In this document: positions 1,218 through 50,562 of the stretch, one piece after another
How positions within the stretch are numbered: the stretch's first letter is position 1
Layout of the letters: every line of letters starts with the position of its first letter
Origin: Dehalococcoidia bacterium
GTDB lineage: Bacteria > Chloroflexota > Dehalococcoidia > Plut-88900
Assembly (NCBI GenBank): GCA_965249275.1
Contig: CBDFLQ010000007.1
Span: forward strand, 576,001 to 640,000
DNA: 64,000 nucleotides
Reading direction: 5' to 3'
Position numbers and translations under genes: made by a program
Notes under the pieces: generated by a model
Told to the model about the DNA's origin: nothing
The model's database searches: none
Seen by the model: only the letters and a program-made list of their open reading frames with translations

Positions 1218-1468
1218 TGTTAGATAATTGCATAATGCTGGAAAGAAATTCTGTCCGGCCACGCACTTTTCACATACGCCATACATTATCCGGTATCCCG
1301 CGCCCTCAATGCCACCTGGTCGCCGCCTGCTCAGTCATCCCCAGATTTGACATTAGCCTGTTGTGTTATAATTCACATCCGAAAGAAGTCTGATGATTAC
1401 CTTGTTTTCACCCGAATCTTTTTTCACCCATACCCTGTATGACCTGCTAGGGCCGCACGGCCCAGGGA

Positions 1469-3013
1469 GTGCCCATGACTGTCCAGGCGACTAGGGGCGT
1501 AGGATCCCGAACGTACCAACGTCCCCGCAGAGTCCTTTTAACAGAGCCGCCCAACAGCCTCTTTGTCGGCTTTAACGCCACGGTGATTGTCGAACCCCTG
1601 GGCTTGGAATACTTGGCCGGAAACCTCCTCGACATCGCTGACGTCCGTATCTATGACATGCGCGTCGACAAGAAGCCTCTGGCCCAGGTCATCGAGGAGT
1701 TCAAGCCCGACGTAGTCGGTATACGAGAGGGCTACACGGTCGACGTCTCGTCCGTTAAGAACTTGGCCCGGGACATCAAGAAGATATCCTCGGACATAAT
1801 CATCATTGTAGGCGGTCATCACGTCTCCCTCGCACCCCAGGACGCATTCAGCCCGGACATCGATGCAATCGTCATCGGCGACGGTGAGAACACCTTCCGC
1901 CGCCTTGTCCTCAGCCTCCAGAATGACCGGGGACTCGACTCTATACCCGAGGTTATCTACCGCACCGCCAGCGGGGACTTCGACCAGTCCAACACCAAAG
2001 TAATAAAGAAGAGCTCCCTTAAGGAGTTCGACTCCCTATCCATGAACGAGCGCCCTCTGCCCGCCCGGCATCTCGTAGACCAGTACAGGGACGACTATTT
2101 CTTCCTATATCACACCAAGCCCTACTCCGTAGAAATGGCTCGCGGTTGCATCTACCGGTGCAACTTCTGCTCCGTCCACGAGTTCCACCGCGGCGAGTAC
2201 AAGGTCCAGGGCAACGATCGCACGCTCCTTGAGCTTTCCAAGCTTCCCCGCAATTCGTGGATCAACATTGTCGACGATTTGGCCATCCAGGAGCTTCCCG
2301 GCTCCCTCAAAATGGCCTACCCCCCGGGATTCGATCCCATGGACGACCTCGCCGACAAGATCATCGACATGGATCTCGGCCAACGTTACTGGATGCAGGT
2401 CCGCGCCGACAACGTGGTCCGAAACCCCAAGAAGTTCGAAAAATGGGCCAAGGCCGGGCTCGACACCGTGTTGGTCGGCCTTGAATCCTTTGAACAGAGC
2501 GACCTGAACTCCGTTGCCAAGGGCACCCGTGTCGGTGACAACGAGAAGTCCATCGACATCCTCCACAGCATGGGCATTCGGATTTGGGGCGCCGTTATGA
2601 TCTTCCAGCATTGGATGGATAGTAACTTCGAAAACCTCAAGGAGAAGGTCAACGAGACCAGGATCGAGTTTCCCAACTACACAATACTCACTCCCCTGCC
2701 CGGCACCGGTCAGTGGAAGGATATGCACAGCAAGCTGGTTACGAAGGAGCCCCACTTCTTCGACTTCCTCCACAGCGTATTGCCGACCAAGTTGGGGGGC
2801 GAAAAGTTCTATGAGCAGTACGCCTCCCTTTGGCGCACCGTGGGAGACGGAGGGATGGACAGGATCAGGAGAATGATCAACGAGGTTTCCACAACCCGGG
2901 AGAGCGTTATCAAGTTCCTCCGCCAGTACAGGACCCTCTCCGACATTGAGACCTACCGCCGAGGCATTGAACTCCTGGACCAAGGGCCCCCTGCAAAGCA
3001 GCCTTCCCCTTAG
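1469..3013 (+). CDS. Cobalamin-binding (class B) radical SAM protein, HpnR/BchE-like
   Basis: N-terminal B12-binding domain (EPLGLEYLA, VGGHH, GDGE), RGCIYRCNFC motif, VGLES and TPLPGT motifs. Start is GTG 1469 or ATG 1475. Confidence 0.85.
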   Translation: MPMTVQATRGVGSRTYQRPRRVLLTEPPNSLFVGFNATVIVEPLGLEYLAGNLLDIADVRIYDMRVDKKPLAQVIEEFKPDVVGIREGYTVDVSSVKNLARDIKKISSDIIIIVGGHHVSLAPQDAFSPDIDAIVIGDGENTFRRLVLSLQNDRGLDSIPEVIYRTASGDFDQSNTKVIKKSSLKEFDSLSMNERPLPARHLVDQYRDDYFFLYHTKPYSVEMARGCIYRCNFCSVHEFHRGEYKVQGNDRTLLELSKLPRNSWINIVDDLAIQELPGSLKMAYPPGFDPMDDLADKIIDMDLGQRYWMQVRADNVVRNPKKFEKWAKAGLDTVLVGLESFEQSDLNSVAKGTRVGDNEKSIDILHSMGIRIWGAVMIFQHWMDSNFENLKEKVNETRIEFPNYTILTPLPGTGQWKDMHSKLVTKEPHFFDFLHSVLPTKLGGEKFYEQYASLWRTVGDGGMDRIRRMINEVSTTRESVIKFLRQYRTLSDIETYRRGIELLDQGPPAKQPSP

Positions 3014-3038
3014 ATCCGTGTAAAGGCAGGACTTTCCA

Positions 3039-4283
3039 GTGCTTGACCACCGTGTAGTAGTCACAGGCGTTGGCTTGGTTACCCCTCTCGGAATGGACGT
3101 AGAGTCTACTTGGGGGAGCTTGATTTCCGGTCAGTCGGGCGTCGGATATATCACCGCCTTCGATTCCTCCGACTACGAGACCCACATCGCCGCCGAAGTC
3201 TCCGACTTCAACCCCAACGACCACCTGGACCGCAAGGCCGCACGGCGGATGGACCGTTTCGTCCAGTTCGCCGTAATCGCCGCCAGGGAGGCCGCCGCCC
3301 AATCAGGCCTTGAAATTACCGACGAAAACGCTGGCGACGTAGGAACGGTTATCGGGAGCGGCATCGGGGGACTTATCACGCTATCGGAGCAGTTCAACGT
3401 GCTCCGGGACAAGGGCCCCTCTCGTATCAGCCCTTTCCTGGTGCCCATGATGATCACCGACATGGCTTCCGGCCAAGTCTCGATTGACCTTGGTATCAAG
3501 GGGCCCAATTTCTGTACGACTTCCGCCTGCTCCAGCGGCAGCGATGCCATAGGCGCCGCTTACCAGCTCATTCAAGCCGGCAAGGCTAAGGCCATGATTA
3601 CCGGTGGCGCCGAGGCAAGCATCACGCCCATCGCCGTTGCCGGGTTCAATGCCGCCAGGGCACTGTCCACGAGAAACGACGAGCCCCAGAAGGCTTGCCG
3701 CCCCTTCGACGCTGGTCGGGACGGCTTCGTCATGGGCGAAGGCGCCGCTATGCTGATGATCGAGGATATGGAGCACGCTGTCGGGCGCGGCGCTACCATT
3801 CTCGCCGAACTCATTGGATACGGCACCTCCGGAGACGCCTTCCATCTCACCGCGCCCGCCGAGGGCGGTGAAGGCAGCATTCGAGCCATAAAGATGGCCT
3901 TGGGTGACGCCCAGGTCCAACCCGACGATATCGACTACATCAACGCCCACGGCACCTCCACACCCCTCAACGACAAGTTCGAGACCCTTGCCATCAAGAA
4001 AGTCTTCCAGGAAGAGGCCTACCGCATCCCAATCTCTTCTACCAAGTCCATGACCGGCCATCTCATTGGCGCCGCAGCCGCTCTTGAGGCCGCCATCACC
4101 GTACTGGCCATAGACCGAGGCGAAATTCCACCCACCATCAACCTCGAAGACCCCGACCCAGAATGTGACCTGGACTACACCCCCCACATCCCCCGCCGCG
4201 GCGAGGTAAAAGTCGCACTCTCCAACTCTCTCGGGTTCGGCGGCCACAACTCGGTGCTCGTCTTCCGCCAACCCCCCGCCTAG
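3039..4283 (+). CDS. fabF: 3-oxoacyl-ACP synthase II
   Basis: RVVVTGVGLVTPLG, TSACSSG catalytic Cys, INAHGTST, STKSMTGHL, SNSLGFGGHN. Confidence 0.97.
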   Translation: MLDHRVVVTGVGLVTPLGMDVESTWGSLISGQSGVGYITAFDSSDYETHIAAEVSDFNPNDHLDRKAARRMDRFVQFAVIAAREAAAQSGLEITDENAGDVGTVIGSGIGGLITLSEQFNVLRDKGPSRISPFLVPMMITDMASGQVSIDLGIKGPNFCTTSACSSGSDAIGAAYQLIQAGKAKAMITGGAEASITPIAVAGFNAARALSTRNDEPQKACRPFDAGRDGFVMGEGAAMLMIEDMEHAVGRGATILAELIGYGTSGDAFHLTAPAEGGEGSIRAIKMALGDAQVQPDDIDYINAHGTSTPLNDKFETLAIKKVFQEEAYRIPISSTKSMTGHLIGAAAALEAAITVLAIDRGEIPPTINLEDPDPECDLDYTPHIPRRGEVKVALSNSLGFGGHNSVLVFRQPPA

Positions 4284-7603: not shown

Positions 7604-8419
7604 TTAGGCAGCGGGAGCTGGCTGGATGCTCGGGGTCCGGCGGTCCAGCACCGAGCCTCCCATGTATCCCAGCCAAATCGGCACCAGTGGCAGGATACAC
7701 GGCGACAGGAACGACAGTATGCCGCCCGCAAACGCTATTATTATCGATGCCCCGCCCATCCCCGTGACTTCGCTGCTGCCCGTTACCTCGGGTATGAAGG
7801 TGAAGTAGGAATTCAGCTGCTGCAGGGAGCCGGTCACAATGAGCGCTCCAATCAACACCAACAGCAGTCCGCTTATCAGCTCAATGAACTCGAGGTACGG
7901 GTTGACCTTCTTCAGCCACCGCTTGGCAACGCCTATGAAGGCCCCGACCAACAGGAATGGCAACCCCAGGCCCAGGGAGTACGCGAACATCAGCACCGCA
8001 CCCTGCCCTATCGAACCCTCCAGTGTCAGGGACAGGATCCCCGCCAGGATCGGGCCCACGCACGGCGTCCATCCTATGGCAAACGCTGCCCCCACCACCG
8101 CCGACCGCATTAGGTTCGGCTTGTCACCCGCCCCAATCCCGATTCCTCTTTGCCGGTACAGAATGCTGGTTAGCGGGCCGAACCGCACAATCCCGCTCAG
8201 GTGAAATCCCAGGATAATCAGTAACGTCCCCGCCCCGATCTCTAGCCAGTCCCGCCAACTCCCCGTCCCGAGGGAACCCAACAGCGCCCCCAGCCCCGTG
8301 AACACCAGCGAGAACCCGGCCACGAACGCTACTGCATGAATGAACGGCGCCGGCGAGAACCCGAGTTTCGCTAGGCCACTCGGTGCGGTCTGCTGCGCTC
8401 CTGTTCCGGGATTCACCAT
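7604..8419 (-). CDS. ccdA: Cytochrome c biogenesis/disulfide transporter CcdA (circularly permuted)
   Basis: Both redox Cys motifs are present (GWTPCVGPIL and GILSFLSPCILPLVP), but in reversed order. Confidence 0.85.
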   Translation of the reverse strand: MVNPGTGAQQTAPSGLAKLGFSPAPFIHAVAFVAGFSLVFTGLGALLGSLGTGSWRDWLEIGAGTLLIILGFHLSGIVRFGPLTSILYRQRGIGIGAGDKPNLMRSAVVGAAFAIGWTPCVGPILAGILSLTLEGSIGQGAVLMFAYSLGLGLPFLLVGAFIGVAKRWLKKVNPYLEFIELISGLLLVLIGALIVTGSLQQLNSYFTFIPEVTGSSEVTGMGGASIIIAFAGGILSFLSPCILPLVPIWLGYMGGSVLDRRTPSIQPAPAA

Positions 8420-8542
8420 AGCGCTAGCGGCTCCTCTCTTGTCCTGTAACCGTTACTCTTAGTATGTCAACAAAAGACCGGCTCGGGCAACAAGTCCCTC
8501 ACACCATTTAACGAATTACTCTAGCAAAAGTTGCCCATTGCA

Positions 8543-9379
8543 TCACGTGCTCTTCAATGACGGACTCGGACCACGGGGCCCTTCAGAACGCTGGCGCACC
8601 AGCAGAAACGCCCCGACTGCGAAGACCGCTACCATCGTTAGCAGAGATATTACATGCGCCTGATGCAAAGACCCTATTCTCCCCGGATCGTCCCGCGTGA
8701 ACTGCACAGCGAACCTTATAGCCGCATACGTCCCGAGATAGATCAGCATCACCATACCGTCGGGCTTCACCCGGCCGATGAGCCGCATTATGACGAAGAA
8801 CAGCAGTACGTCGCCCACCATCTCGTACGCAACGGATGGGTGATACGCAAGCTCCGACCCGCTCTCGGATACGGGAATCGCCGGTCTGCCCGTATTCAGG
8901 CCCGGCCAGTTGGCGTGGGTGTGGACCCAGCCCCACGGCAGACTCGTCCGGGTGCTGAAGTGCTCTCCATTGATCACGTCCCCCACCCGGCCAATAGTCT
9001 GAGCGACCAGCATCATGGGGGCGCTAATGTCGGCGATCTTGCCCACGGACTGCTTATTCAAAATCGCCCAGGTGACACCGGTAATCGTCCCACCTAGCAA
9101 AGCACCCCACAGCCCCACACCGCCATTCCAGATGGTGAATATCTTTACCGGGTCGTTTATGTAATAGGACCAGTTATCAAATACGTGAACCAGCCGAGCC
9201 CCCACCACCCCTCCCGGCACCGCCCACGCTGCGCAGGAATAGATGACCTGGGGGTCCATGCCCCTGTCCCGCGCAAGCCTCGCCGTGCCGAATACCGCAA
9301 ATGCCACCCCCAGGGCCGTGAATATCCCGTGCCACGACAACCCCCCAATCAGAAAGGGGTCCATGTTGATTTCAAGCAT
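8543..9379 (-). CDS. lgt: Prolipoprotein diacylglyceryl transferase
   Basis: GVVGARLVHV, IWNGG, QTIGRVGDVINGE, HPSVAYE and RFAVQFTR motifs. Confidence 0.92.
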   Translation of the reverse strand: MLEINMDPFLIGGLSWHGIFTALGVAFAVFGTARLARDRGMDPQVIYSCAAWAVPGGVVGARLVHVFDNWSYYINDPVKIFTIWNGGVGLWGALLGGTITGVTWAILNKQSVGKIADISAPMMLVAQTIGRVGDVINGEHFSTRTSLPWGWVHTHANWPGLNTGRPAIPVSESGSELAYHPSVAYEMVGDVLLFFVIMRLIGRVKPDGMVMLIYLGTYAAIRFAVQFTRDDPGRIGSLHQAHVISLLTMVAVFAVGAFLLVRQRSEGPRGPSPSLKST

Positions 9380-9452
9380 CCTTGATCTCGGGCTCCGTCC
9401 TTATCGTATAAGTAGTCCGATCAGCTTCACTATCCGTTCACTTCACCCATCC

Positions 9453-9482
9453 AGTGTAGCCTCCCCGCCGAATGTCGGTCAA
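9453..9482 (-). promoter_or_regulatory. Putative sigma70 promoter for lgt; its -35 overlaps the 3' end of the large element
   Basis: Minus strand TTGACC (9482-9477), 18-bp spacer, TACACT (9458-9453). Confidence 0.5.
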
Positions 9483-10218
9483 TCCGCTGTACTTGTTCGG
9501 CAGGTTAGTGACACACCGGCCTTTTCTTCAGTCCTCCAGAGGCGGATGTTCCATCTTCGATTGTGGGGTTTCGGTTTCCGTTCTGTCTGTTGGGTTTTGG
9601 GAAGGCGATGGAAGACGCTTGCTGGACGCTACCCCCGTTCCTGTGCCTCGGGTGCTCCGACGCCCTGGGGCAAGGGCGTCCGGCCCGCTTTTGCCGCTGC
9701 TGCGGCCTCTGGGCCTGTATACGCTGGACATGGGCAGGGACCTTCAGGGCCACCGGGTCCGAGCCTGACTCCGGGGGGTTGGCTGCACCGCTTAAGGGCG
9801 GCTAGGAGGCTCGTCCAGCGTCCGGGTGGAGCCTCTTGCAGGCGTAATATGTCCAGGTTTGCCGGTGCGACCCGGAGCGCAGGGACCACCGGCTCCCGGC
9901 TTGATTGAGCGGACGGTGTACCGAGAGGACCTCGGCGCCGGGCCTATCCGACCGCTATTCCGCTTGAAGGAGCGGCATCTCCGTTAGGAGCCTCACATGG
10001 AACGATAGCGAACCAGGGCGTCTTTCCATCGCCTGGGGGTCAGGGAAGGGGGCACGGGACCCGGTGGGGATGAGGAGATGGCGACTTTCGCTTGTGCCGC
10101 GGGCCTGCGCGAGGGCCGTTGGGATGGGCTGAGGCGTTGAGTCCTCGGGGACCGGGGCTGGGCTTCCCCCTAGGTTGTGGTTCCTCCTTAAGGTAGTTGG
10201 GTTAGGTGGTCTAGACCT
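9478..10218 (-). ncRNA. Candidate large structured ncRNA, copy 1 (~740 nt, family not recognised)
   Basis: Homologous to 48578-49309: conserved 5' domain, 65-nt identical 3' block (9505-9569), 15-bp long-range helix (10018-10033 with 9604-9618), dense hairpins, own promoter, no reading frame conserved between copies. Confidence 0.75.
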
Positions 10219-10224
10219 GGCTAC

Positions 10225-10253
10225 AATATAGAACATACGTCTTATCATGTCAA
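10225..10253 (-). promoter_or_regulatory. Sigma70 promoter of ncRNA copy 1 with a LexA-like box in the spacer
   Basis: Minus strand TTGACA (10253-10248), 17 bp, TATATT (10230-10225). Plus strand AGAAC-ATAC-GTCTT at 10230-10243. Confidence 0.7.
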
Positions 10254-10374
10254 TAGGTTAATGTCACCACTCTATGTGAACGGGATCATCCGCCCGACCC
10301 TCCTTTACCATCCGTTATCGCGTTATGTTAAACTTGTTCGGTATTCATCCTCATATTTATAGGAGAGTGGCAAG

Positions 10375-11307
10375 GTGAAAATAGTAATCGATGCATTTTT
10401 AACTCATCTCACCGTGGAACGCGGCCTTTCCGCCAACACCCTATACGCCTACCGTAACGACCTCTACCAGTTCCTGGAGTTCATCGAAACGGGCCTCGGG
10501 CCCAGGAAGCGTGTCTCCAACTGGGGAGGCGTAGATCGCGACATGGTCGCCAAGTACGGCCTCGATCTCCGGGACCGCACCTTCAAGGACTCCACCATCG
10601 CCCGCAAGATCGCCGCCATCAAGTCTTTTTTCGCGTTCCTGGTCGACGAGGGTGACATCGAGACCGCCCCCACCGAGCATATGAACTCGCCGAAGGTTGG
10701 GCGGGCCCTGCCAAAAGCCCTCTCCGTCGAGGACATCAATAGGCTCTTAACTGCGACCAGGGAACGCAAGACCCCGGATGGCCGGCCTAAACCCGTCTCT
10801 CCCGACAGCCTCCGTGACTGCGCTATGTTGGACCTCTTGTACGCCAGCGGACTCCGAGTCACCGAGCTAGTTTCCCTCAACGTTGCCGACGTCGACATTC
10901 GCAACAACCATGTTCGATGTCTGGGCAAGGGCGGCAAGGAGAGGATCGTTCCCATCCACCAGGAGGCCTCCGAGGCCCTGCGGGAGTACGTCGAGCGAGC
11001 TAGGCCTCGCCTCCGAAAGAAGTTCGAAGAGCAGGCTCTGTTCCTGAACCGCCGCGGCGACCGTCTCACGCGGCAAGGCTTCTGGCTTATCTTGAAGGGT
11101 TACGCAAAAGAGGCCCAGATAAAGACCCCCATAACCCCCCACGTCCTCCGTCATAGCTTCGCCACCCACATGCTCAGAGGTGGCGCACCCCTCAGGCACG
11201 TCCAGGAGATGCTCGGCCACGCCAACATCTCTACGACCCAGGTCTACACCCACCTTGCAAGCGATCAGGTGCGTGACCAGTACGACAAAGCGCACCCCAG
11301 GGCCTGA
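10375..11307 (+). CDS. xerD: Site-specific tyrosine recombinase XerD
   Basis: LTVERGLSANT..AY, LLYASGLRVTEL, GKGGKER, TPHVLRHSFATH, LGHANISTTQVYTH; AGGAG SD. Confidence 0.95.
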   Translation: MKIVIDAFLTHLTVERGLSANTLYAYRNDLYQFLEFIETGLGPRKRVSNWGGVDRDMVAKYGLDLRDRTFKDSTIARKIAAIKSFFAFLVDEGDIETAPTEHMNSPKVGRALPKALSVEDINRLLTATRERKTPDGRPKPVSPDSLRDCAMLDLLYASGLRVTELVSLNVADVDIRNNHVRCLGKGGKERIVPIHQEASEALREYVERARPRLRKKFEEQALFLNRRGDRLTRQGFWLILKGYAKEAQIKTPITPHVLRHSFATHMLRGGAPLRHVQEMLGHANISTTQVYTHLASDQVRDQYDKAHPRA

Positions 11308-11376
11308 GTCTCGGCATTTGCGGCCCCGGTTTCGCGCCGACTATAATCAGACCATAGAAACGCATCAGGACTAAAC

Positions 11377-11745
11377 ATGGCAAAAAAGTCAAAGCGGTTC
11401 GCCGCCAAGCAATCCTCAAGTACCAAGCGAAAGAAGGGTAAGGCGGGACTGTCCCAGCGGCAGATCGAGCTTTCAGGAGTCTCTGCCCCCACTCCCACCC
11501 CTCCCCCCGCAGCCGACGCCGCGGATACAGGGGCCCCTGTCCTTGAGTCCACCGAAGCCCCTGAAACAGGCTCTCCCTCCGAGACCCCGGAGCAGGCTAC
11601 GCAACCTGGACCCCAGGTCGCCGCCCCCGCAGCTGTCGGTGCACCCTGGCGTTACGGCTACGTCCTCACTGACGTCAAGCGCATCGGCCTGATGACTGTG
11701 GTCGTAGCCCTTCTCCTCGGCGCCCTTACTTTCATCCTCAGATAG
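11377..11745 (+). CDS. Hypothetical protein (basic N-terminus, Pro/Ala-rich linker, C-terminal TM anchor)
   Basis: AGGA SD, coding-like codon usage, YGYVLTDVKRIG followed by a TM helix. Confidence 0.7.
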   Translation: MAKKSKRFAAKQSSSTKRKKGKAGLSQRQIELSGVSAPTPTPPPAADAADTGAPVLESTEAPETGSPSETPEQATQPGPQVAAPAAVGAPWRYGYVLTDVKRIGLMTVVVALLLGALTFILR

Positions 11746-12102
11746 CCCCCTCTCTCCATTCATTCCGGCCTGGGGCCGGGATCCAAGAGTGGGGGAATGG
11801 CCGCTTCCCCAGTGGGATTGTGACACCGCCCCGTTGACTAGCGCCGCATTGTTGTACTATCTTCCCCTCCCCACTTGCATCCATCACACACCATCAATTG
11901 CCGATTACAAAACAAGAAAAGCTAACGACACTTCTTCCACAACCTCTGACACCGAATTTTCTCCAGGATGATCAAACAATCAAACATCGTGCCTGATAGC
12001 TGCAAACAATCGTACGCAAAGCTGTTTCCACTTGATTGTCCGCTTTCCTTTTAATTGTCATATGTCAACTGTGCTCAGGCCGCATGCTAGAATTACCTGG
12101 TA

Positions 12103-13935
12103 ATGCCTACGCTCTCTATCGCAGACCAGGTAAAGGCCACGCCCACTAAACCCGGCGTCTACATCTTCCGGGACGCCTCCGGCAAGGTTATCTACGTCGG
12201 CAAGGCCGCGGGCCTGCGCAGCCGAGTCCGCTCCTACTTCGCCGACTCCTCTTCACTCACCCTCAAGGGTCGGCACCTCGCCGCGCGCATCGCCCAGTAC
12301 GAATACGTAGTCACCGATTCCGAGGGCGAGGCCCTCATCCTCGAAAACACCCTCATCAAGCGCTACAAGCCCAAGTACAACGTCCGCCTCAAGGACGACA
12401 AGACATATCCCTACATCAAGATAGACCTGGAAGAGGAGTTCCCCCGCGTCTACTTCACCAGGAGACTGGACGACGAGCGCGGCGCCCGATACTTCGGCCC
12501 CTTCGCATCCGCCAGCTCCGTCCGACGCACCCTGGACCTAATCAAGAAGCTCTTCCCTTACCGGTCCTGCACCAAGAACATCACCGGCACCGACCCGCGC
12601 CCCTGCCTCGACTTCTACATCCACCGTTGTGTCGGGCCGTGCATCGGGGCGGCGTCCAAGGACGAATACCGCCAGGTTATCGACCAGGTCATCCTGTTCC
12701 TCGAAGGGAAGCACGAGACCATAGTCAAAGACCTGAGCGCCAGTATGCACCAGGCCGCCGAGCGTCTCGAGTTCGAGCGCGCCGCCGCCCTCAGGGACCA
12801 GGTACGCGCCATCGACAGGGTATCGCAGACGCAGAAAGTCCACTCCCTACACCTCAAGGACGAGGACTACATAGCCCTGTCACGCGGCCAGGACGAGGCA
12901 TGGATCGAGATATTCTTTGTCCGTGCAGGCAAGACCGTAGGCCGAGACCACTTCATCATGGAAGGCACCCAGGACGAGGGTGACGCCGATATAATGGCCG
13001 GATTCATCAAGCAGTTTTACGACTCGGCATCCTACGTCCCGCCCCTCCTCCTTCTCCAGCACGCACCTGTTGACTCCACCTTGATTAACTCTTGGCTGGA
13101 GAGTAAACGAGGCCGCAGAGTCCATATGAAAGTCCCCCGCCGCGGCAACCGTAGAATGCTGCTGCAGATGGTCGCCGCCAACGCGGAGCAGGGGCTCGCG
13201 CAGCGCCACATCAAGTGGCTGGCCGACGCCGACGCCATCACCGGGGCCATGTCTGAGCTTCAGGAGCACCTCAACCTCCCCGAACTGCCCCAGCGTATGG
13301 AATGCTACGACATTTCCAACATTCAGGGCTCAAACCCCGTCGGCTCAATGGTCGTCTTCGAAAACGGAAAACCCAAGCCTGCCCACTACCGCAAGTTCAA
13401 GATCAAGACCGTCCAGGGCATCGACGACTATTCCATGATGCAGGAGATGCTCCGCCGACGCTTCCGCCGGCTCAAGGACGCCGTCAACGCCAAACCCGAC
13501 GGCTGGACCATCGTCCCTGACCTCGTCCTCATCGACGGAGGCAAGGGCCACCTTGGCGCCATACACCAGCTCTTCCTGGAACTCGGCATCGCCCATATCC
13601 CCCTGGCCAGTATCGCAAAGCGCTACGAGGAGGTGTTCCGCCCCGACAGCAAGGAGCCTATCATCCTGCCTCGCAGTTCGCAGGCCCTCTACCTTGTCCA
13701 GCGCATCAGAGATGAAGCCCACCGCTTCGCCATTACCTTCCACCGGCAACTGCGGAAGAAGAGCAGCGTGAGGTCGGCCATGGACTCTGTCCCGGGCATC
13801 GGGCCCAAACGAAAGAAGGCCCTCATCCGCAGGTTCGGCACGGTCAACGCGATACGCGAGGCCGACACCAGTGAAATCGCAGCCGTGGTCGGGATGACCC
13901 AAAAGCTCGCCGAAATTGTCAAAGAGCACCTCTAA
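12103..13935 (+). CDS. uvrC: Excinuclease ABC subunit C
   Basis: GIY-YIG domain (PGVYIF..IYVGKA), UVR domain, ECYDISN, LIDGGKG, RDEAHRFA and C-terminal HhH. Confidence 0.98.
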   Translation: MPTLSIADQVKATPTKPGVYIFRDASGKVIYVGKAAGLRSRVRSYFADSSSLTLKGRHLAARIAQYEYVVTDSEGEALILENTLIKRYKPKYNVRLKDDKTYPYIKIDLEEEFPRVYFTRRLDDERGARYFGPFASASSVRRTLDLIKKLFPYRSCTKNITGTDPRPCLDFYIHRCVGPCIGAASKDEYRQVIDQVILFLEGKHETIVKDLSASMHQAAERLEFERAAALRDQVRAIDRVSQTQKVHSLHLKDEDYIALSRGQDEAWIEIFFVRAGKTVGRDHFIMEGTQDEGDADIMAGFIKQFYDSASYVPPLLLLQHAPVDSTLINSWLESKRGRRVHMKVPRRGNRRMLLQMVAANAEQGLAQRHIKWLADADAITGAMSELQEHLNLPELPQRMECYDISNIQGSNPVGSMVVFENGKPKPAHYRKFKIKTVQGIDDYSMMQEMLRRRFRRLKDAVNAKPDGWTIVPDLVLIDGGKGHLGAIHQLFLELGIAHIPLASIAKRYEEVFRPDSKEPIILPRSSQALYLVQRIRDEAHRFAITFHRQLRKKSSVRSAMDSVPGIGPKRKKALIRRFGTVNAIREADTSEIAAVVGMTQKLAEIVKEHL

Positions 13936-13951
13936 CCCCGCTCCCCCAAAC

Positions 13952-14848
13952 ATGCCCGATCAAACGCAAAACGCGCTGACAAACCTACAGGAGGGAGTCC
14001 GACTCCTCGACCAAGGTCAGATCAATGAGGCAATCGGCTTATTCGATCTCGCTATCCGGCTCGACGGTACGTTGGTGGACGCTTACCTCCGCCGCTCCGA
14101 GGCCCACAATTTCAAGGGTCAGGCCGGCAAGGCAGTCACCGACGCAACCAAAGCCCTGATGCTCGACGCCCAAAACGCCGGGGCGTACGTCGACCGCGCC
14201 GCCGCATATGTCAACATGGGCAATTTCGAGCGCGCCCTCGCCGACTCCAATGAAGCCATCGCACTGAAGCCCACCGCCGCAGCCCACGTCAACCGGGGCG
14301 CCGCCCACAGGGGTTTGGGTAAAGTCGTCATGGCACTCGGTGATTTCAACAAAGCAGTCGGCCTCGACCCTCGGTATCCCCTCGCCTACAGCCACCGAGC
14401 CAGCGCCTTCCTAACAATAGGCGCTTTCGATAGAGCGATTCAGGACACCACCGCCGCCATTGACCTGGACCCGCACCTGCCCCAACCCTATATCGATCGC
14501 GGTGAAGCCTACAGACACAAAGGTGATTTCGATGCAGCCGTCAAGGACGCCTCCACTGTCCTGAGTCTGCAACCCAATCTCGTCATTGCGCTGGTAAACC
14601 GGGCCGCAGCCTACCTTGACCAGGATTATGCCCCCGACGCCCTCGCCGATTCCGAGGCCGCCCTTAACCTCGACCCGGACAACGTCCTCGCCATTAACAA
14701 CCAGGCCGTGGCACTGGCCAAGATGGGCCGTACGAAAGACGCCCTCGACTCCCTCGCCCGCGCCCTAACGCTCGCCCCGACCGACGAAGTTCGAGCCCAT
14801 ATAACCATGGTCATGGACCGGCTTACCGGCGATCAGTCGCCTTCTTAG
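13952..14848 (+). CDS. Tetratricopeptide repeat protein
   Basis: About eight 34-aa TPR units (AYxxRxxAY...A..D...AI.L.P). ATG 13952 chosen to avoid overlap with uvrC. Confidence 0.9.
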   Translation: MPDQTQNALTNLQEGVRLLDQGQINEAIGLFDLAIRLDGTLVDAYLRRSEAHNFKGQAGKAVTDATKALMLDAQNAGAYVDRAAAYVNMGNFERALADSNEAIALKPTAAAHVNRGAAHRGLGKVVMALGDFNKAVGLDPRYPLAYSHRASAFLTIGAFDRAIQDTTAAIDLDPHLPQPYIDRGEAYRHKGDFDAAVKDASTVLSLQPNLVIALVNRAAAYLDQDYAPDALADSEAALNLDPDNVLAINNQAVALAKMGRTKDALDSLARALTLAPTDEVRAHITMVMDRLTGDQSPS

Positions 14849-14945
14849 CAACATGTCGGTTGCTTGTTGAGGCACCGGATGAAAGTGTCGCCTCTCCACT
14901 TGGTGTAAAATTGACCTACGTCGTCTGATCCCTTTCAACTATCTA

Positions 14946-15614
14946 ATGCGATTCATAATCACCTTGACCCTAATCGTGGCCCTCCTGGGCTTTGCCGCAG
15001 CTTGCAGCTCGGGAGCAGCGCCTACGGCCACCCAGCCCGCGCCCACCCCACCCCCGACCACCCCCCCGGCGACCCCCACCCCAGTCCCTACCGCCCTGAT
15101 CGAATGGTCGGATGAAGACTGCATATTCCGACCCCACGGCGAGTTGGGAGAGCTAACCAGGGTCACGCGTACATATGTCGAGAACGAACCTAAGCGCAAC
15201 GTCGAGCGCCTATTCCTCAAATTCCACCAGTCTGAAGCCGAATCGACCATCCTTCGCTGCGACATGAACACAGCGGGACTCTTCTCGACCTGGTGGGTGC
15301 AGTCTTTCCCCACCGAACAGGACGCCCAACGTCTCTTCGAGTCCCTCATTCTTGTCACCCGCCCCGGAGTCGATAGGCTTAACCAAAACCCTCGGTCCTG
15401 CGCCCTCATCAGAGCCGGAAAGGACGGGCAAGACAGCTACAACCTGGATTTCGTAGACAAGGGCATCTGCGAAAGCAGCGTCTTCAACGGGCTCAGCGGG
15501 ATCGTAATCTATGGCAACACTGTCATAGGCATAGACTCCCAGTTCTACGAAGAGTTCTTTGAGGCTCTCCTGGTCCACGCCAAGGCCCTCGTAGACAAGA
15601 GGACCTCCTCCTAG
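14946..15614 (+). CDS. Hypothetical lipoprotein
   Basis: Signal peptide with lipobox-like FAAAC followed by a Pro/Thr-rich linker. Confidence 0.7.
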   Translation: MRFIITLTLIVALLGFAAACSSGAAPTATQPAPTPPPTTPPATPTPVPTALIEWSDEDCIFRPHGELGELTRVTRTYVENEPKRNVERLFLKFHQSEAESTILRCDMNTAGLFSTWWVQSFPTEQDAQRLFESLILVTRPGVDRLNQNPRSCALIRAGKDGQDSYNLDFVDKGICESSVFNGLSGIVIYGNTVIGIDSQFYEEFFEALLVHAKALVDKRTSS

Positions 15615-15615
15615 C

Positions 15616-16449
15616 TTGCGTGTCCCCGGCCTGTCCCCGACTTCACCTCTGCTTACCAGTGCCCCGACGCGTCCCATACTAACCCTCCGCGCTCTATTCG
15701 AAAACAGGTTCGTCAAGGAGGGTTCGCTCCTGGTCCTCGGGTACATCGTCTACATGTCCCTGCGCCACGTCTTCCTCGAAGAGGTTGAGGCAGTCGGCCG
15801 GACAAACGCCCTCAAAGTAATCGATATCGAGAAATTCCTGGGCATCTACTGGGAGCCCGCACTCCAGTCCCGCCTCCTCTCCGAGGCCTCGTGGATCGTG
15901 ACCTTCTTCAACTGGGCCTATTCTCTGGGTTTTCTACCTGTAATAGTGCCCGGGGCCGTGGCACTCCTCTGCCTCCGCTACGATTCATTCGTCTATTTCC
16001 GAAGGGTGTTCCTCATAAGCTACGTGATTACATGGGTGCTGTGGTTAACCCTTCCCGTCACCCCACCCAGGCTGATGTTAGAAGAGGGCTTCGTAGATTC
16101 CATAGAGGTCATGGGGCCGGCATTCTATAACAGCAAGCAGTCCATCGCGTACTATAACCAACACTCCGCCATGCCCAGCATGCACTTTGGGTGGACCCTG
16201 CTCTTCTCGATAATGCTCCTGAAGACCGGGAGCCGAGCCCTGCGCCTATTCGGTGTCATCCTCCCAATAGTGGCCTTCGCAGCGATAGTCGTGACCGCCA
16301 ACCATTTCTTCCTGGACGCGGTAGTCGGGGGTGGCATCATTGGTCTGGCCTTCGCTATATACCATCTGGCAGCCCGCTCCCCGAAACCACGTGCCTCCTC
16401 CACTCGATCATCGACAATGATAGCACGAAGTGATATCATTTCATCGTGA
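15616..16449 (+). CDS. PAP2-family (AUR1/IPC-synthase-like) membrane phosphatase/phosphotransferase
   Basis: PVTPPRL, AMPSMHFGW and TANHFFLDAVVG motifs. Start uncertain. Confidence 0.85.
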   Translation: MRVPGLSPTSPLLTSAPTRPILTLRALFENRFVKEGSLLVLGYIVYMSLRHVFLEEVEAVGRTNALKVIDIEKFLGIYWEPALQSRLLSEASWIVTFFNWAYSLGFLPVIVPGAVALLCLRYDSFVYFRRVFLISYVITWVLWLTLPVTPPRLMLEEGFVDSIEVMGPAFYNSKQSIAYYNQHSAMPSMHFGWTLLFSIMLLKTGSRALRLFGVILPIVAFAAIVVTANHFFLDAVVGGGIIGLAFAIYHLAARSPKPRASSTRSSTMIARSDIISS

Positions 16450-16709
16450 GGCGGAAGCACCGCAGGACTCTCGCCGCGATATTAGAAACCCCGACTCGGT
16501 CAGGAATTCGTTGGGAAGACATAGAATCGCTCCTCCTAGCCTTGGACGCCGAGATAGAGGAGCGGGCCGGATCCCGGATCGGTGTACGGCTAGAATTGCA
16601 TTTCGCAGTTTTCCATCGTCCTCACCCTCAACCGGAAGCCAGCAAAGATCTTGTAAAAGCCGTCAAACACCTTTTAAGAGAGGCAGGGATCACCAATGCT
16701 GACCTATAA
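16446..16709 (+). CDS. hicA: HicA-family toxin
   Basis: IRWEDIESLL..L...EERAGSR...FHRPHP; overlaps the downstream hicB. Confidence 0.88.
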   Translation: MRRKHRRTLAAILETPTRSGIRWEDIESLLLALDAEIEERAGSRIGVRLELHFAVFHRPHPQPEASKDLVKAVKHLLREAGITNADL

Positions 16710-46929: not shown

Positions 46930-47880
46930 TCAATTCTGCGATGGGACCTTCATCAGATTTTCGCTCAGCAAACGGATGTGCTCCGGCCCTATTCCGCAGC
47001 ACCCGCCAATGAGCCGGGCCCCGGCTTCCACCCAGGTTTCCGCCTGCCGTAGATAGTCGCCCGGGGAGATCACCGCATCGAAATTCCAGTTTGGACGGCT
47101 CCAGTACCCCGAGTGCGCGTACGCCCCCATGGGCCCGTCCCAGTTCTCTTTCATAACTTCAAGCGATGGCACTATGTACTCCACCTCCGAGTGCATGACA
47201 ATTACCATGTCTCCACCCAGGGACTTCACGCCGTCCAAGACTTCCTCAAAGGTCAGCCCCTCCACAGTCGAATACTCGGACAGCGCCATTACGGGCTTCC
47301 CCGGCTCGACCATGCTGCTCAAGCCCGACCACACCGGTATCCCGGTTGCCAGTGCCGCTTCCACTATCACGCTGGCCCGCTCCACGTCCCTCAGCATCTC
47401 CAGAAGGAACAGATCGACACCCTCCTCCGCCAATATCTCCGCCTGTTCCCGGTAGCTTTCTTTGAGGAGGTCGAGCGGTGGCGACTCGTGCCCCAGAATC
47501 TCGGTGTAAGCCCCGAACGGTGATATCGATCCCGCCACAAGGACTGTCCTCCCCTCTGATGCCTCATCCACCGCTTGTTTGGCCAGCGACACGGCCATTG
47601 CGTTTATCTCCCGGGTCGCATCACCCTGTCCCGCAGCAGACAGGCTGTGTCTCGCCGAGGAGAACGTGTTTGTTGTAATCACGTCGGCCCCCGCACGAAT
47701 GTAATCCTTGTGCACTTCTAGCAGGGTTTCACTGCCAATCTTGCTCCCAAGCCCCGACCACACCAGCTGGTCCATCGGCACCCCCCGCTTTTCTATCTCC
47801 GTGCTGATCGCGCCGTCGAGGAGCACAACCTCTCCCCCGTCCAATCGTTCTTTCACGATGTCGTAAGCTGCGCTGGCCAT
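46930..47880 (-). CDS. Homocysteine S-methyltransferase-family protein
   Basis: LLDGA, HKDYIRAGADVITTNTF, AGSISP and IGGCCGIGPEHI. Confidence 0.9.
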   Translation of the reverse strand: MASAAYDIVKERLDGGEVVLLDGAISTEIEKRGVPMDQLVWSGLGSKIGSETLLEVHKDYIRAGADVITTNTFSSARHSLSAAGQGDATREINAMAVSLAKQAVDEASEGRTVLVAGSISPFGAYTEILGHESPPLDLLKESYREQAEILAEEGVDLFLLEMLRDVERASVIVEAALATGIPVWSGLSSMVEPGKPVMALSEYSTVEGLTFEEVLDGVKSLGGDMVIVMHSEVEYIVPSLEVMKENWDGPMGAYAHSGYWSRPNWNFDAVISPGDYLRQAETWVEAGARLIGGCCGIGPEHIRLLSENLMKVPSQN

Positions 47881-48007
47881 CTGGCAATTCCCTCCCTGCG
47901 TATGGATTCCACCTACGCACATACCCTTGGCCCCGACAGTATATCCCACCTTCTTAAACCGATGGTCTAGCCCACAAACAGGTGTGATATCACTCCGCAC
48001 CTTCCTC

Positions 48008-48530
48008 CCATCCCGAGGCCTCGCGAGGGATCTCAAACGCCTGCTTGCACAACACAAATGCCTATCCGACCATCCTTGTCCCCCTTCCACCCCCTCCCAT
48101 CATTCCCGACCCCTATCGGGCGGAACGTGCGCCTATGGCGTGAATCCATCCCTTACCTCTCTCGTCATTCTCGTGCCCCGACACGGGAATCCATCCCCGG
48201 TGCGGGGCCGCTCATCCTGAGCTAAGTCGAAGGGTCGAGCGATGGGTGGCCCACCTTAGCCAATTCGTTGCCCGTGCCACCCCCCACCCCCTCCCGTCAT
48301 TCCCGGCCCCTATCGGGAATCCATCCCCCTTCCCCCCCAGTACTGAACTAGAGGGAGACGTTGGCGCGTCTGCGCCAACGTCTCCCTCTGTTCTTATCTC
48401 CCCCTCTCTCTTGAAGGCCCTAAGGGTCGAAGATGTCGTAGATGCGCCTGGGCGTGCGCCCGTGGCGTGAGAGGGGGACAAAAGGGGTGAGGGTTCCCCG
48501 GTGGGGTTGGGGCGGCGTCCCCTAAAAGTG
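48008..48530. repeat. Cluster of REP/MITE-like palindromic repeats
   Basis: Three TCATTCYCG...GAATCCATCCC units (~48098-48152, 48164-48198, 48296-48329), a perfect 18-bp stem at 48350-48389, and a CCCCCTCTC...GAGAGGGGG pair. Confidence 0.7.
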
Positions 48531-48541
48531 ACACGAACCCC

Positions 48542-48571
48542 TTGACCTCACCTGAACATCCGTGCTATTCT
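48542..48571 (+). promoter_or_regulatory. Sigma70 promoter of ncRNA copy 2 with a LexA-like box
   Basis: TTGACC (48542-48547), 18 bp, TATTCT (48566-48571) with extended -10 TG. GAAC-ATCC-GTGC at 48554-48565. Confidence 0.65.
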
Positions 48572-48577
48572 CCCCAC

Positions 48578-49309
48578 CGTTCGAATACCAACCCAACTAT
48601 CTCAAGGAGGAACCAAAAACCCAGGGAAGCCCACCCGACCCACCAGAGGATTCAACGCCTCAGCCCATCCCAACGGCCTTCGCGCAGGCCCGCGGCACAA
48701 GTGACCGGCGCCATCTCCTTTTCCCATCGGGTCCCGTGCCCCTTTCCCTGGTAGTCAGGCGATGGAAGATGCCTGGACGGCGTCATAGTGGACCGGCCAT
48801 CCTCCGCCGAGACCCCGTCTCGGTGGTCGGTTAGCAGCGAGCTTACGCTTTATCAAGCATGGGGTGGCGGACCGGCTATCCCCGTCCGAGACTCCCTCTC
48901 GGAAGTTGGCCCGCCTGCGAGCTTACGCCATATCAAGCAAGGGGCCGTTGGGCCGCCTAGACCCTCGGGTGGCCCACGCAAATACGATATCTGAGGGGGC
49001 TACAGCCCGATCACTGGCCCCCATCATGCCTGTGGGCATTCAGAGGCGGGGTCACAGCCGGACTATCTCCCCGGAAAGTCCGTGTTTATCATCGAGCGTT
49101 AGGGGTGGCAGGGCTTCCATGCCTCGGAGCAGCCCAACATCCGCCAGCAAAACGGGGCAAAACCGACCAATCAGCGTCTTCCATCGTCAACCCTCCCAAC
49201 AGACAAAACCCCACCCCACCCCACAATCGAAGATGGAACATCCGCCTCTGGAGGACTGAAGAAAAGGCCGGTGTGTCACTAATCTACCGAACGAGTACAC
49301 CCGATTGAC
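48578..49309 (+). ncRNA. Candidate large structured ncRNA, copy 2 (~730 nt, family not recognised)
   Basis: Homologous to 9478-10218(-). Helix 48758-48772 with 49174-49188 is retained through two G-U pairs. Identical block at 49218-49282. Confidence 0.75.
48790..48944 (+). repeat. Degenerate ~80-nt tandem duplication inside ncRNA copy 2
   Basis: GGACCGGC..CCGAGAC..TCTCGG..GCGAGCTTACGC..TATCAAGCA.GGGG occurs twice (48790-48864 and 48869-48944). Confidence 0.85.
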
Positions 49310-49333
49310 AACCGACCAGTCCAAAAGCATACT
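49305..49333 (+). promoter_or_regulatory. Putative sigma70 promoter for the downstream LLM gene; its -35 overlaps the element's 3' end
   Basis: TTGACA (49305-49310), 17 bp, CATACT (49328-49333). Confidence 0.55.
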
Positions 49334-49383
49334 CGCCGGGTGTTCCGCCGAGCGCAACGTGCCCCGAGATAAAGGAGGGATTC

Positions 49384-50562
49384 ATGACACTGCCCGACCG
49401 CATGAAGTTCGGCATTTTCATGGCCCCCTTCCATTGGGCCGCCGAAAATCCTACCCTCTCCTTTGAGCGCGACATGGAACTCCTGGAGTGGCTCGACCAG
49501 CTGGGCTACGACGAAGCCTGGATCGGCGAGCATCACAGTGGAGGCTGGGAGACCATCGCTTCCCCGGAGATATTCATAGGCGCCGCCGCCCAGCGCACCA
49601 AGCACATCAAACTGGGCACGGGCGTCCTCAGCCTTCCCTACCATCATCCCCTCATGGTCGCCAACCGCATGATCCAACTAGACCACATGACCCGAGGCAG
49701 AGTGATGATGGGAGTCGGGCCCGGGGCCCTTGTCGGCGACGCCTTCATGCTCGGCATCGACCCTCCTCTCCAGCGCCAGCGCATGGACGAGGCCCTCAAC
49801 ATCATCCTCCGCCTCTGGACCGAGACCGACCCCATCACCTACGAAGCCGACTGGTTTACCCTCAAGGAGGCCACCGTCCACCTTCGCCCATATACTCTGC
49901 CCCACATCCCCGTCGCAGTTGCCGCCTCCTATTCCCCCGCTGGAATGGTCTGCGCCGGTAAATACGGCCTCGCCGTCCTCTCCCTGAACACCATCTCGGT
50001 CCCCGGCGCTGCAGCCCCCGACCTTGCCAAGTTCTGGGACATCGCCGAGGAGACCGCCGACAAGTACGGCAATACCGTCAGCCGAGACGACTGGGGCATC
50101 GTCATTCACGTCCACCTCGCCGAGAGCCGCAAGGAGGCCATAGAGCAGGCCCGAGAGGCCTCAGGCCGCTACCAGAAGGAGTATTTCGAAGACACCCTGG
50201 GCCTGCCAACCGCCTTCGAAGGGCCCCAGGACAAGATCATCGACCACATGGTGGCCACCAATAACTGGTGCGTCGGCACCCCCGACGACCTTGTCGAGAC
50301 CATTCACCGGCTTGAGGAGGAGTCGGGCGGATTTGGAAGACTCCTCATTCAGGCCACCGAGTGGGGAACACGTGAGCAGGTACTCCACAGCTACGAACTC
50401 CTTGCCCGCTACGTAATGCCTCGCTTCCAGGGCTCGGTAACCAGCCTCCACAACTCCCGAGAGTGGTCGGTCAAAAAACGCGAGGAGCTCGTCGCCCTCA
50501 ATATCAAGGCCATGGACAAGGCCAAAGCCGACTACGTCAAAAACGTAGCCGCAGGTCCCTAG
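49384..50562 (+). CDS. LLM-class flavin monooxygenase (limonene 1,2-monooxygenase-like)
   Basis: KFGIFMAPFH, LGYDEAWIGEHHS, LPYHHP and LDHMTRGR; AAGGAGG SD. Confidence 0.93.
   Translation: MTLPDRMKFGIFMAPFHWAAENPTLSFERDMELLEWLDQLGYDEAWIGEHHSGGWETIASPEIFIGAAAQRTKHIKLGTGVLSLPYHHPLMVANRMIQLDHMTRGRVMMGVGPGALVGDAFMLGIDPPLQRQRMDEALNIILRLWTETDPITYEADWFTLKEATVHLRPYTLPHIPVAVAASYSPAGMVCAGKYGLAVLSLNTISVPGAAAPDLAKFWDIAEETADKYGNTVSRDDWGIVIHVHLAESRKEAIEQAREASGRYQKEYFEDTLGLPTAFEGPQDKIIDHMVATNNWCVGTPDDLVETIHRLEEESGGFGRLLIQATEWGTREQVLHSYELLARYVMPRFQGSVTSLHNSREWSVKKREELVALNIKAMDKAKADYVKNVAAGP

Follow-up and report, generated by a model that had tools for sequence, protein, structure and literature searches.

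Correia elements of Neisseria and similar miniature inverted-repeat transposable elements (MITEs) are small, non-autonomous, gene-adjacent repeats that can act as a source of promoters and give rise to structured RNA when transcribed. They measure about 100-150 bp and fold mainly via their inverted repeats; to our knowledge they have neither a large conserved internal RNA domain nor a targeting to sites adjacent to -35 boxes. Insertion sequences (ISs) of the IS481 and IS3 families are characterized by TG...CA tips and short target duplications, and the large bacterial non-coding RNAs (ncRNAs) OLE, GOLLD, ROOL and HEARO/omega RNA all constitute Rfam families, HEARO being multicopy and tied to a mobile element. 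Here we describe a unit of ~0.8 kb that occurs twice in a stretch of 64,000 nucleotides (hereafter the window) of contig CBDFLQ010000007.1 (C7), which belongs to the 2.9 Mb, 59% G+C assembly of a Dehalococcoidia bacterium. The two copies, named A (9478-10218, minus strand) and B (48578-49309, plus strand), had been proposed from their letters alone to be a candidate large ncRNA. Our analysis led us to the view, to which we assign a probability of about 0.7, that they belong to a genus-specific family of MITEs or mobile insertion cassettes, non-autonomous DNA transposons delimited by inverted repeats, which home to the upstream edge of -35 boxes and carry a conserved promoter together with a large structured RNA. 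The genome under study is labelled G000 and its congeners G001-G008.

Bacterial MITEs and mobile insertion cassettes are non-autonomous IS derivatives (PMC3184786). The unit resembles them in its terminal inverted repeats, short duplications, lack of a transposase, tens of intergenic copies and presence or absence between relatives; it differs in being much larger, in having a complete conserved promoter and an RNA of ~700 nt with covarying helices, in its fixed orientation exactly 5 bp from a -35 box, and in that promoter and RNA outlast the ends. With the Correia elements it has in common being a non-autonomous repeat beside genes, the promoter and the structured RNA. The TG...CA ends, an inner GT(G/A)ACA ~21 bp from the tip and a 5-bp duplication like that of a resident IS with a 320-aa transposase relate it to IS481/IS3-type ISs; unlike these, it has no transposase gene, its left tip is TGA and not TGT, and its target is a -35 box and not a repetitive extragenic palindrome (REP). 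It is, like OLE, GOLLD, ROOL and HEARO, several hundred nucleotides long, multi-domain, supported by covariation and narrow in range, but it had no match to 4227 Rfam models even at E<=10, and it is found at 24-67 copies per genome, with its own promoters, in an element with terminal inverted repeats and target duplications and no associated protein gene. No matching element was found in a full-text search of the literature, supplementary files aside; a Chloroflexota tandem-repeat cluster named in a preprint does not fit the element. The unit is a real, unusual member of the non-autonomous inverted-repeat transposons, linking MITEs to the large orphan ncRNAs through a promoter and a multi-domain RNA cargo of ~700 nt that outlast the ends of the element.

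Copies, ends and insertion sites

Alignment of copies A and B showed that they are indeed related, with near-identical blocks of ~190 nt at the 5' side and ~130 nt at the 3' side, a middle that aligns poorly and a mean column identity of 78%. Chance was excluded as the source of this likeness by an nhmmer search of G000, which recovered 54 full-length 5' domains (all E<1e-34) and 35 3' domains. The expectation that more copies would be found elsewhere was thus borne out by the genome-wide search: the windowed copies are two of 54 in the 2.9 Mb of G000, and a covariance model built from 79 distinct 5' domains matched the same number there and 42, 58, 24, 67, 53, 44, 42 and 44 times in G001 to G008, respectively. 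By BLAST the 5' domain was present in 8/8 other genomes of the genus and in 0/32 genomes of other genera. With the covariance model, two other genera of the family gave no match and a third a single marginal one (E 0.007), while a sample of the class (121 genomes, 94 genera) gave matches in 5/5 genomes of this genus and, in the other 116 genomes of 93 genera, one partial match of 22.8 bits. An exact-motif scan of the species collection returned at least 78 stretches; the matches listed came from seven records, six of them named 'MAG: Dehalococcoidia bacterium' and one labelled delta proteobacterium. The motif was found in no viral contig and in six short metagenome contigs of a single project.

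The 9.1-kb contig C4 of G000 is a second version, 92-94% identical, of window 7783-16576 around copy A; the two versions share insertion site and GCGGA duplication but not the class of middle domain. This contig represents either a co-assembled strain or a duplication, and the independent loci may number 53.

The ends of the element became apparent when the upstream flanks were aligned, since a subfamily of 17 copies, copy A included, is homologous for ~35 bp further, up to a sharp left end, TGATCCCGTTCAC. The right edge reads ...CCGAACGAGTACA. Together they form imperfect terminal inverted repeats (left TGATCCCGTTCAC...GTGACA, right TGTCAC...GAACGAGTACA), in which the left TGATCCCGTTCACATAGAGGGGTGACA aligns with the reverse complement of the right end, TGTACTCGTTCGGTAGATTAGTGACA, and a GTGACA motif lies ~21 bp from the tip at each end. 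Both ends, with the left one adjacent, are recognisable in 15/54 copies, or 17/54 when the distal left ends of copies n27 and n31 are counted. Among these 17 two-ended copies, the 5-bp target duplication is perfect (5/5) in ten, matches at 4/5 in two and at <=2/5 in five.

Empty sites in relatives and target duplications, the two signs of insertion to be looked for according to the original prediction, were both found. At the copy A locus G003 is empty and reads GGGCGGA|TTGACCG, where G000 has GGGCGGA[element]GCGGA TTGACCG; the GCGGA repeated in G000 is single in G003. At the copy B locus ~1.35 kb, comprising the element and a cluster of other repeats, is absent from G003 and G001, and homology resumes at the -35 box of the luciferase-like monooxygenase (LLM) gene. 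TTGAC itself as the duplicated target was ruled out by an empty site without a left end. The unit is a mobile DNA element.

These results change the meaning given at first to the boundaries of the homology, which had been taken to match a transcription unit rather than a DNA duplication. They are the ends of a transposon plus the -35 box of the host. Homology had been thought to begin 12-15 nt past the transcription start; the promoter itself proved to be conserved across copies. GATTGAC, supposed to close a transcription unit, consists of the last bases of the target duplication and the host -35 box. The true end of the element, ...GAGTACA, lies at 49299 in copy B and at 9488 in copy A; it is followed by the 5-nt target-site duplication and then by TTGAC(A/C), the -35 of the downstream gene's promoter, already present in the empty sites of sister species. 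As for the idea of a self-propagating RNA, self-propagation holds for the unit, at the level of DNA, as indicated by the terminal inverted repeats, the 5-bp duplications and the empty sites.

Insertion was oriented and confined to promoters. Twenty-five right flanks were scored, one poor match having been dropped, and the bases that follow the 5-nt duplication were T in 22, T in 20, G in 21, A in 17 and C in 18. Further on, at 16-18 nt, 22/25 flanks have a -10-like hexamer (>=4/6 matches), and a co-oriented open reading frame (ORF) starts 34-133 nt beyond the end of the element. Seven of the downstream ORFs were identified (an ArgC-like dehydrogenase, UvrA, an aldehyde dehydrogenase, RibF, the peptide deformylase Def, LLM and Lgt), and they are functionally unrelated, as had been noted for LLM and Lgt at first; two copies precede tRNA genes. 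Flank bases, -10 hexamers and co-oriented ORFs together imply that insertion takes place exactly before the -35 of real promoters: the right end is always 5 bp upstream of a TTGAC-type -35 and points to the host gene. The element's own -35 is used as a target too, some copies being preceded by a stack of left ends; left ends occur nested as well as solo. We propose that the target would be read as N5^TTGAC, and that selection would leave only those insertions that stand before real promoters. Such promoter-directed homing could represent new biology, based for example on a sigma-like reading of TTGAC or on promoter-bound RNA polymerase. Safe-haven insertion is a strategy known from eukaryotic elements; the oriented, near base-pair-precise insertion upstream of -35 boxes amounts to the same strategy, for which a full-text search of the literature gave no bacterial description.

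An unrelated 1.31-kb IS of G005 hits the same type of site, with its 5-bp duplication just upstream of a TTGAC -35 in 7/7 copies examined, four of which stand before this RNA family.

The promoter and the RNA

No transposase gene lies inside the unit, which is 620-840 nt long when counted from the 5'-domain anchor up to where the 3' domain ends, or ~0.7-0.9 kb with promoter and left end; the rve and DDE_Tnp_1 genes of G000 sit elsewhere. What the unit does carry is a promoter. Leaving out one copy at a contig edge (hence n=53), the -35 TTGAC(C/T/A) was found in 51/53 copies and the -10, of the TATATT or TATTAT type with at least 4/6 matches, in 52/53, at a spacing of 17-18 nt; GTGWCA precedes the -35 in 47/53. 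A promoter scan of the element strand returned exactly two sites per window copy, the element's own and that of the host gene. With about fifty strong promoters directed toward housekeeping genes, these uncultured Dehalococcoidia must have a transcriptome that is shaped by them.

Transcription was assessed from public sequencing runs. Three RNA libraries of two studies (X16, X17 and X20; the label of two libraries is sponge metagenome) have contigs on 48583-49032, with zero depth at 48409-48582 in all three. Across 47800-48234 depth was zero in X16 and X17 and a trace in X20 (2.9 in one bin). The run X1, of unrecorded kind and probably DNA, had a depth of 85-4006 on the repeats upstream of copy B. 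This distribution argues for transcription and not for DNA carry-over. Positions 49105-49191 in X16 and most of the middle in X17 have no contig cover, which we do not read as evidence. We conclude that a conserved and probably transcribed RNA exists.

This RNA, of ~650-720 nt, opens with a short leader, which exists in three types that all contain a small palindrome. A 5' domain with invariant runs and a long-range helix come next, and the C/A-rich tail holds one to three small hairpin modules. In the 15-bp helix, GGCGAUGGAAG plus four bases pair with a complementary run 300-540 nt downstream, enclosing a middle domain of 300-500 nt. The helix is present in 54/54 copies, and its extension co-varies among ACGC/GCGU, GUCC/GGAC and AGGCCC types; only 1/10,000 permutations reached the observed complementarity, by a gapless score that understates the helix. 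Twelve copies have a G·U pair in it that would be A·C on the other strand. The hairpin that follows CCCAUCC is represented by 35 distinct sequences, all of which fold at an identical position into stems that include GGCC, GGGCGGC, GGGCAGC, GGUCGC, GAGCGGC and GGCUCUGC; single compensatory steps and U·G pairs link them and make sense on the RNA strand only. RNAalifold reported double changes in 4/17 pairs. The compensatory and G·U changes, taken without account of the phylogeny of the copies, support an RNA structure. The ~430 natural variants from nine genomes may be used for solving it.

The ~22-nt hairpin module (GGAACAUCCGCCNNNGGAGGA; window 49233-49258) is present one to three times in the 3' tail and has also been inserted once or twice within the 5' domain of three copies (n18, n20 and n50); variants such as UCCGCC-UUG-GGCGGA restore full pairing. 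Some copies of other genomes contain the core of the 5' domain twice, ~85-120 nt apart, as a tandem duplication (G004 C1:1274824-1275150 and 1689044-1689349; also L057, L088, L100 and L108).

No conserved ORF was found in the transcribed part, the ORFs of the RNA strand differing in place and frame between copies. A protein-coding reading was discarded, as frameshifts and indels among the members of middle class 1 interrupt the sole recurrent frame, which belongs to that class. Neither the whole window at gathering score nor copies A and B at E<=10, where hits were at chance level only, matched any of the Rfam models.

The middle domains fall into about ten classes, combined with the three leader types in shuffled fashion. 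G000, G002/G005 and contig C4 (93% identical) have different middles at the copy A locus, and this shuffling and swapping implies that recombination among copies is frequent. The orthologous element is present in G002 (L125/L130) and G005 (L126) with a middle that cannot be aligned with that of G000 (window 9615-10013), a domain swap at a fixed locus. The middle of copy B is the only member of its class in G000; within it, a 79-nt unit is repeated 1.9 times (79% matches) at 48790-48944.

Even though the ends are unrecognisable in many copies, none has lost the promoter or the 5' domain. At the copy B locus, G000 and G002 are 92.0% identical in the 5' domain, 96.6% in the middle and 93.9% in the 3' part, compared with 86.7% and 93.8% in the flanking coding sequences (CDSs) and 86.9% in the host promoter plus untranslated region (UTR). 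Given that promoter and RNA stay intact in copies deprived of their ends, and that the orthologous copy matches the flanking CDSs in conservation, the RNA would be a cargo kept by selection and not a decaying relic.

Weighing the alternatives and the search for a transposase

Several observations weigh against a mobile element with a structured, selected RNA. Concerning transcription, neither window copy has a terminator-like site on the RNA strand, which leaves the 3' end undefined, and the expression data are low-depth assembled contigs, from which strand, ends and level cannot be taken. Concerning structure, the single-sequence fold of copy B is unexceptional (z -1.56; 2/20 shuffles fold as well), the RNAalifold consensus on the MAFFT alignment is weak (-10 kcal/mol, 17 pairs) and in part a different fold, two alternative partners were proposed for CAUCUCCUC, and a column-pair scan mostly recovered correlations between subfamilies. 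Selection is questioned by the mosaicism, a sign of gene conversion that is able to keep copies alike without selection on each, and the comparison of conservation is that of one orthologous pair at one locus. Finally, a matching duplication is absent from 5/17 two-ended copies, and the closest pair at different loci is 95.6% identical, against 99-100% among IS copies. Two of the five mismatched copies share their left flank, which points to recombination between copies; the identity of the closest pair implies that movement is not very recent and makes current activity doubtful.

The alternative that survives best, unlikely as we consider it, is a purely selfish MITE, in which the promoter would be left over from that of a transposase gene since lost, and structure and conservation would result from young copies and gene conversion. 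The unit does stand where a transposase gene would, inside the left end and behind a promoter and AAGGAGG; the shuffled leaders and middles, the exchange of the middle at the copy A locus, the unexceptional folding of copy B and the lack of a known partner protein agree with this alternative as well. It is difficult to reconcile with promoter hexamers kept in 51-52 of 53 copies though the RNA bodies differ by 5-25% and many ends are lost, with compensatory and G·U stem substitutions that are strand-specific, and with an orthologous copy whose conservation exceeds that of the host promoter region and of one flanking CDS. Were the RNA a relic only, the family would still be a clean example of promoter-targeted transposition.

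Less probable still is that the unit acts as a long cis-acting leader or portable promoter cassette that alters the expression of the host gene by read-through. The unit is always co-oriented with that gene, 5 bp from its -35, and one X16 contig (depth 2.2) spans 49241-49365 across the right end; together with the lack of a terminator-like site, this makes read-through into the downstream gene possible. However, only 125/207 bases of that contig fit the window, the host genes retain their own promoters, which are present in the empty sites, and a conserved structure of 700 nt with exchangeable middles exceeds what a spacer needs. The diversity of the downstream genes, tRNA genes among them, also speaks against this explanation, and, with a pre-existing host promoter between element and gene, against a riboswitch; on this point the original argument against a metabolite-sensing leader is supported.

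We give little credence to a third explanation, that the RNA is a transposition guide or scaffold directing insertion at promoters, as the bridge RNA of IS110, the omega RNA of IS605 or the guides of CRISPR-associated transposons do. A structured RNA with a variable middle domain, in a mobile element of unusually precise and oriented targeting, would agree with such a guide. Nevertheless, the flanks, in which complementarity to the RNA was not systematically sought, share TTGAC only, yet there are just ~10 middle classes; no recombinase, nuclease or transposase gene lies inside or consistently beside the element; the 1.31-kb IS reaches the same site type in the seven copies examined without this RNA; and the Rfam models gave nothing. 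Spread via an RNA intermediate, as a group II intron without an ORF or as some other retroelement or ribozyme, suggested by the ~700 nt, the many copies and the structured RNA, is already contradicted by the inverted repeats and 5-bp duplications outside the transcribed part, by the promoter being copied along, and by the absence of any Rfam intron, ribozyme or retron match even at E<=10.

Regarding the role of the RNA in a promoter-homing transposon, our first guess, held at somewhat below even odds, is an abundant RNA that acts in trans via the shared 5' domain, probably by binding a common protein partner. That it acts mainly in cis, as a strong upstream promoter and a structured spacer reading into the host promoter and gene, is a more doubtful guess, and the least likely of the three is that it has no cellular function beyond the persistence of the element. 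We thus favour a trans-acting RNA maintained by selection, with cis read-through and a selfish relic as live rivals. It is conceivable, if improbable in our judgement, that the family represents a new class of large structured RNA needed in high dosage by the host or the element, with a common 5' protein-binding domain, ~10 interchangeable 'specificity' domains and ~fifty strong promoters, spread by a -35-homing transposon.

The tips TGA... and ...ACA and the 5-bp duplication are those of an IS481/IS3-type element. G000 contains three IS481-like families and one IS5-like family. The ends of the 320-aa IS481-like IS (12 copies in G000; transposase NF033577, E 7.8e-56, below the curated cut-off) resemble the right end of the unit, and this IS also makes 5-bp duplications (GGAAT/ATTCC). 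On account of this likeness we propose that the element would be moved in trans by a DDE transposase of the IS481/IS3 type. This proposal is weakened by the extent of the match, ~17/27 end positions by eye on the alignment, by the fact that the 320-aa IS targets REPs and not promoters, and because no transposase-bearing element with the same ends was found in G000 or in a non-exhaustive search of the other genomes; in G001-G008, which were screened for rve genes, one further IS type was inspected and its ends differ. Two further IS481-like ISs of G000 (394 and 376 aa) and its IS5-like IS were discarded, their ends or targets being different.

A 438-codon rve gene located 630-634 nt from the RNA in G001, G002 and G005 was considered as the element's own transposase and rejected, because its junctions are those of the separate 1.31-kb IS. 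The latter (L120:4439-5749 in G005; L161-L166) encodes a distant IS481/IS3-like transposase of 437 aa (NF033577, E 2.5e-13), is inserted just before the -35 of the RNA promoter with a 5-bp duplication of its own and has ends, CGTGCGACCTCAAAATT...GGTTACCG, unrelated to those of the element. Downstream of this IS, the G005 loci L162, L163 and L164 have promoters of the same style (TTGAC, 17-18 nt, TGTGCTATATT or TAGTTCTATACT) followed by leaders outside this RNA family, so that G005 may contain a second promoter-bearing repeat family. At L164, 11 nt of the IS left end also persist as a footprint in front of the -35.

Features of the window and neighbouring repeats

The coordinates of both copies and their surroundings are collected in Table 1. 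The neighbourhood first described was confirmed: copy B has a REP cluster on its upstream side and the LLM gene on its downstream side, and lgt lies downstream of copy A.

Table 1. The two copies of the element and adjacent features, in window coordinates
Feature	Coordinates	Strand	Remarks
REP-like short-repeat cluster	47956..48523	.	Separates copy B from the divergent upstream gene; included in the ~1.35 kb absent from G003 and G001
Copy B, inner left-end remnant AAAAGTGACACGAACCCC	48524..48541	+	GTGWCA 7 nt upstream of -35; outer tip unrecognisable
Copy B, own sigma-70-type promoter	48542..48571	+	TTGACC, 18 nt, TATTCT; TG before -10; predicted start ~48578-48580
Copy B, predicted ncRNA body	48578..49266	+	5' end predicted from the promoter; no conserved ORF; RNA-library contigs
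Copy B, conserved 5' domain	48597..48757	+	AAGGAGG at 48604-48610; invariant GAGGAYUCAACG..AGCCCAUCC; covarying hairpin; CGCCAUCUCCU
Copy B, closing helix, 5' strand GGCGAUGGAAGAUGC	48758..48772	+	
Copy B, middle domain	48773..49173	+	
Copy B, closing helix, 3' strand GCGUCUUCCAUCGUC	49174..49188	+	One G·U pair
Copy B, C/A-rich tail, then hairpin module GGAACAUCCGCCUCUGGAGGA and CUGAAGAAAAGG	49189..49266	+	
Copy B, right terminal inverted repeat GCCGGTGTGTCACTAATCTACCGAACGAGTACA	49267..49299	+	
Copy B, pentamer CCCGA at the target-duplication position	49300..49304	+	Left partner not preserved
LLM host promoter	49305..49333	+	TTGACA, 17 nt, CATACT; in the empty sites of G003 and G001, hence not part of the element
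LLM gene, host neighbour	49384..50562	+	PF00296, E 2.5e-47
Copy A, complete element, 801 bp, TGATCCCGTTCAC...to...CCGAACAAGTACA	9488..10288	-	Own promoter 10225-10253
Copy A, left target duplication GCGGA	10289..10293	-	Empty site in G003
Copy A, right target duplication GCGGA	9483..9487	-	
lgt host promoter	9453..9482	-	TTGACC, 18 nt, TACACT; abuts the duplication
lgt CDS	8543-9379	-	PF01790, E 1.3e-49

A solo left end of 35 bp (TGATCCCGTTCACATAGAGGGGTGACATCAACCCC), perhaps what a deletion left behind, lies at G000:C6:928796-928830. It is directly followed by the -35 of the promoter of groES-groEL, and a CIRCE-like inverted repeat is also part of that promoter.

The REP-like families, which form dense clusters at window 47956-48523 and upstream of many other copies, are several and include CCCTCTCCC...GGGAGAGGG and GTCATTCC...GGAATC hairpins, and similar repeat blocks precede many copies of type b/c. 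These clusters are the targets of the resident IS481-like ISs, and the GGAAT/ATTCC duplications of the 320-aa IS fall inside them.

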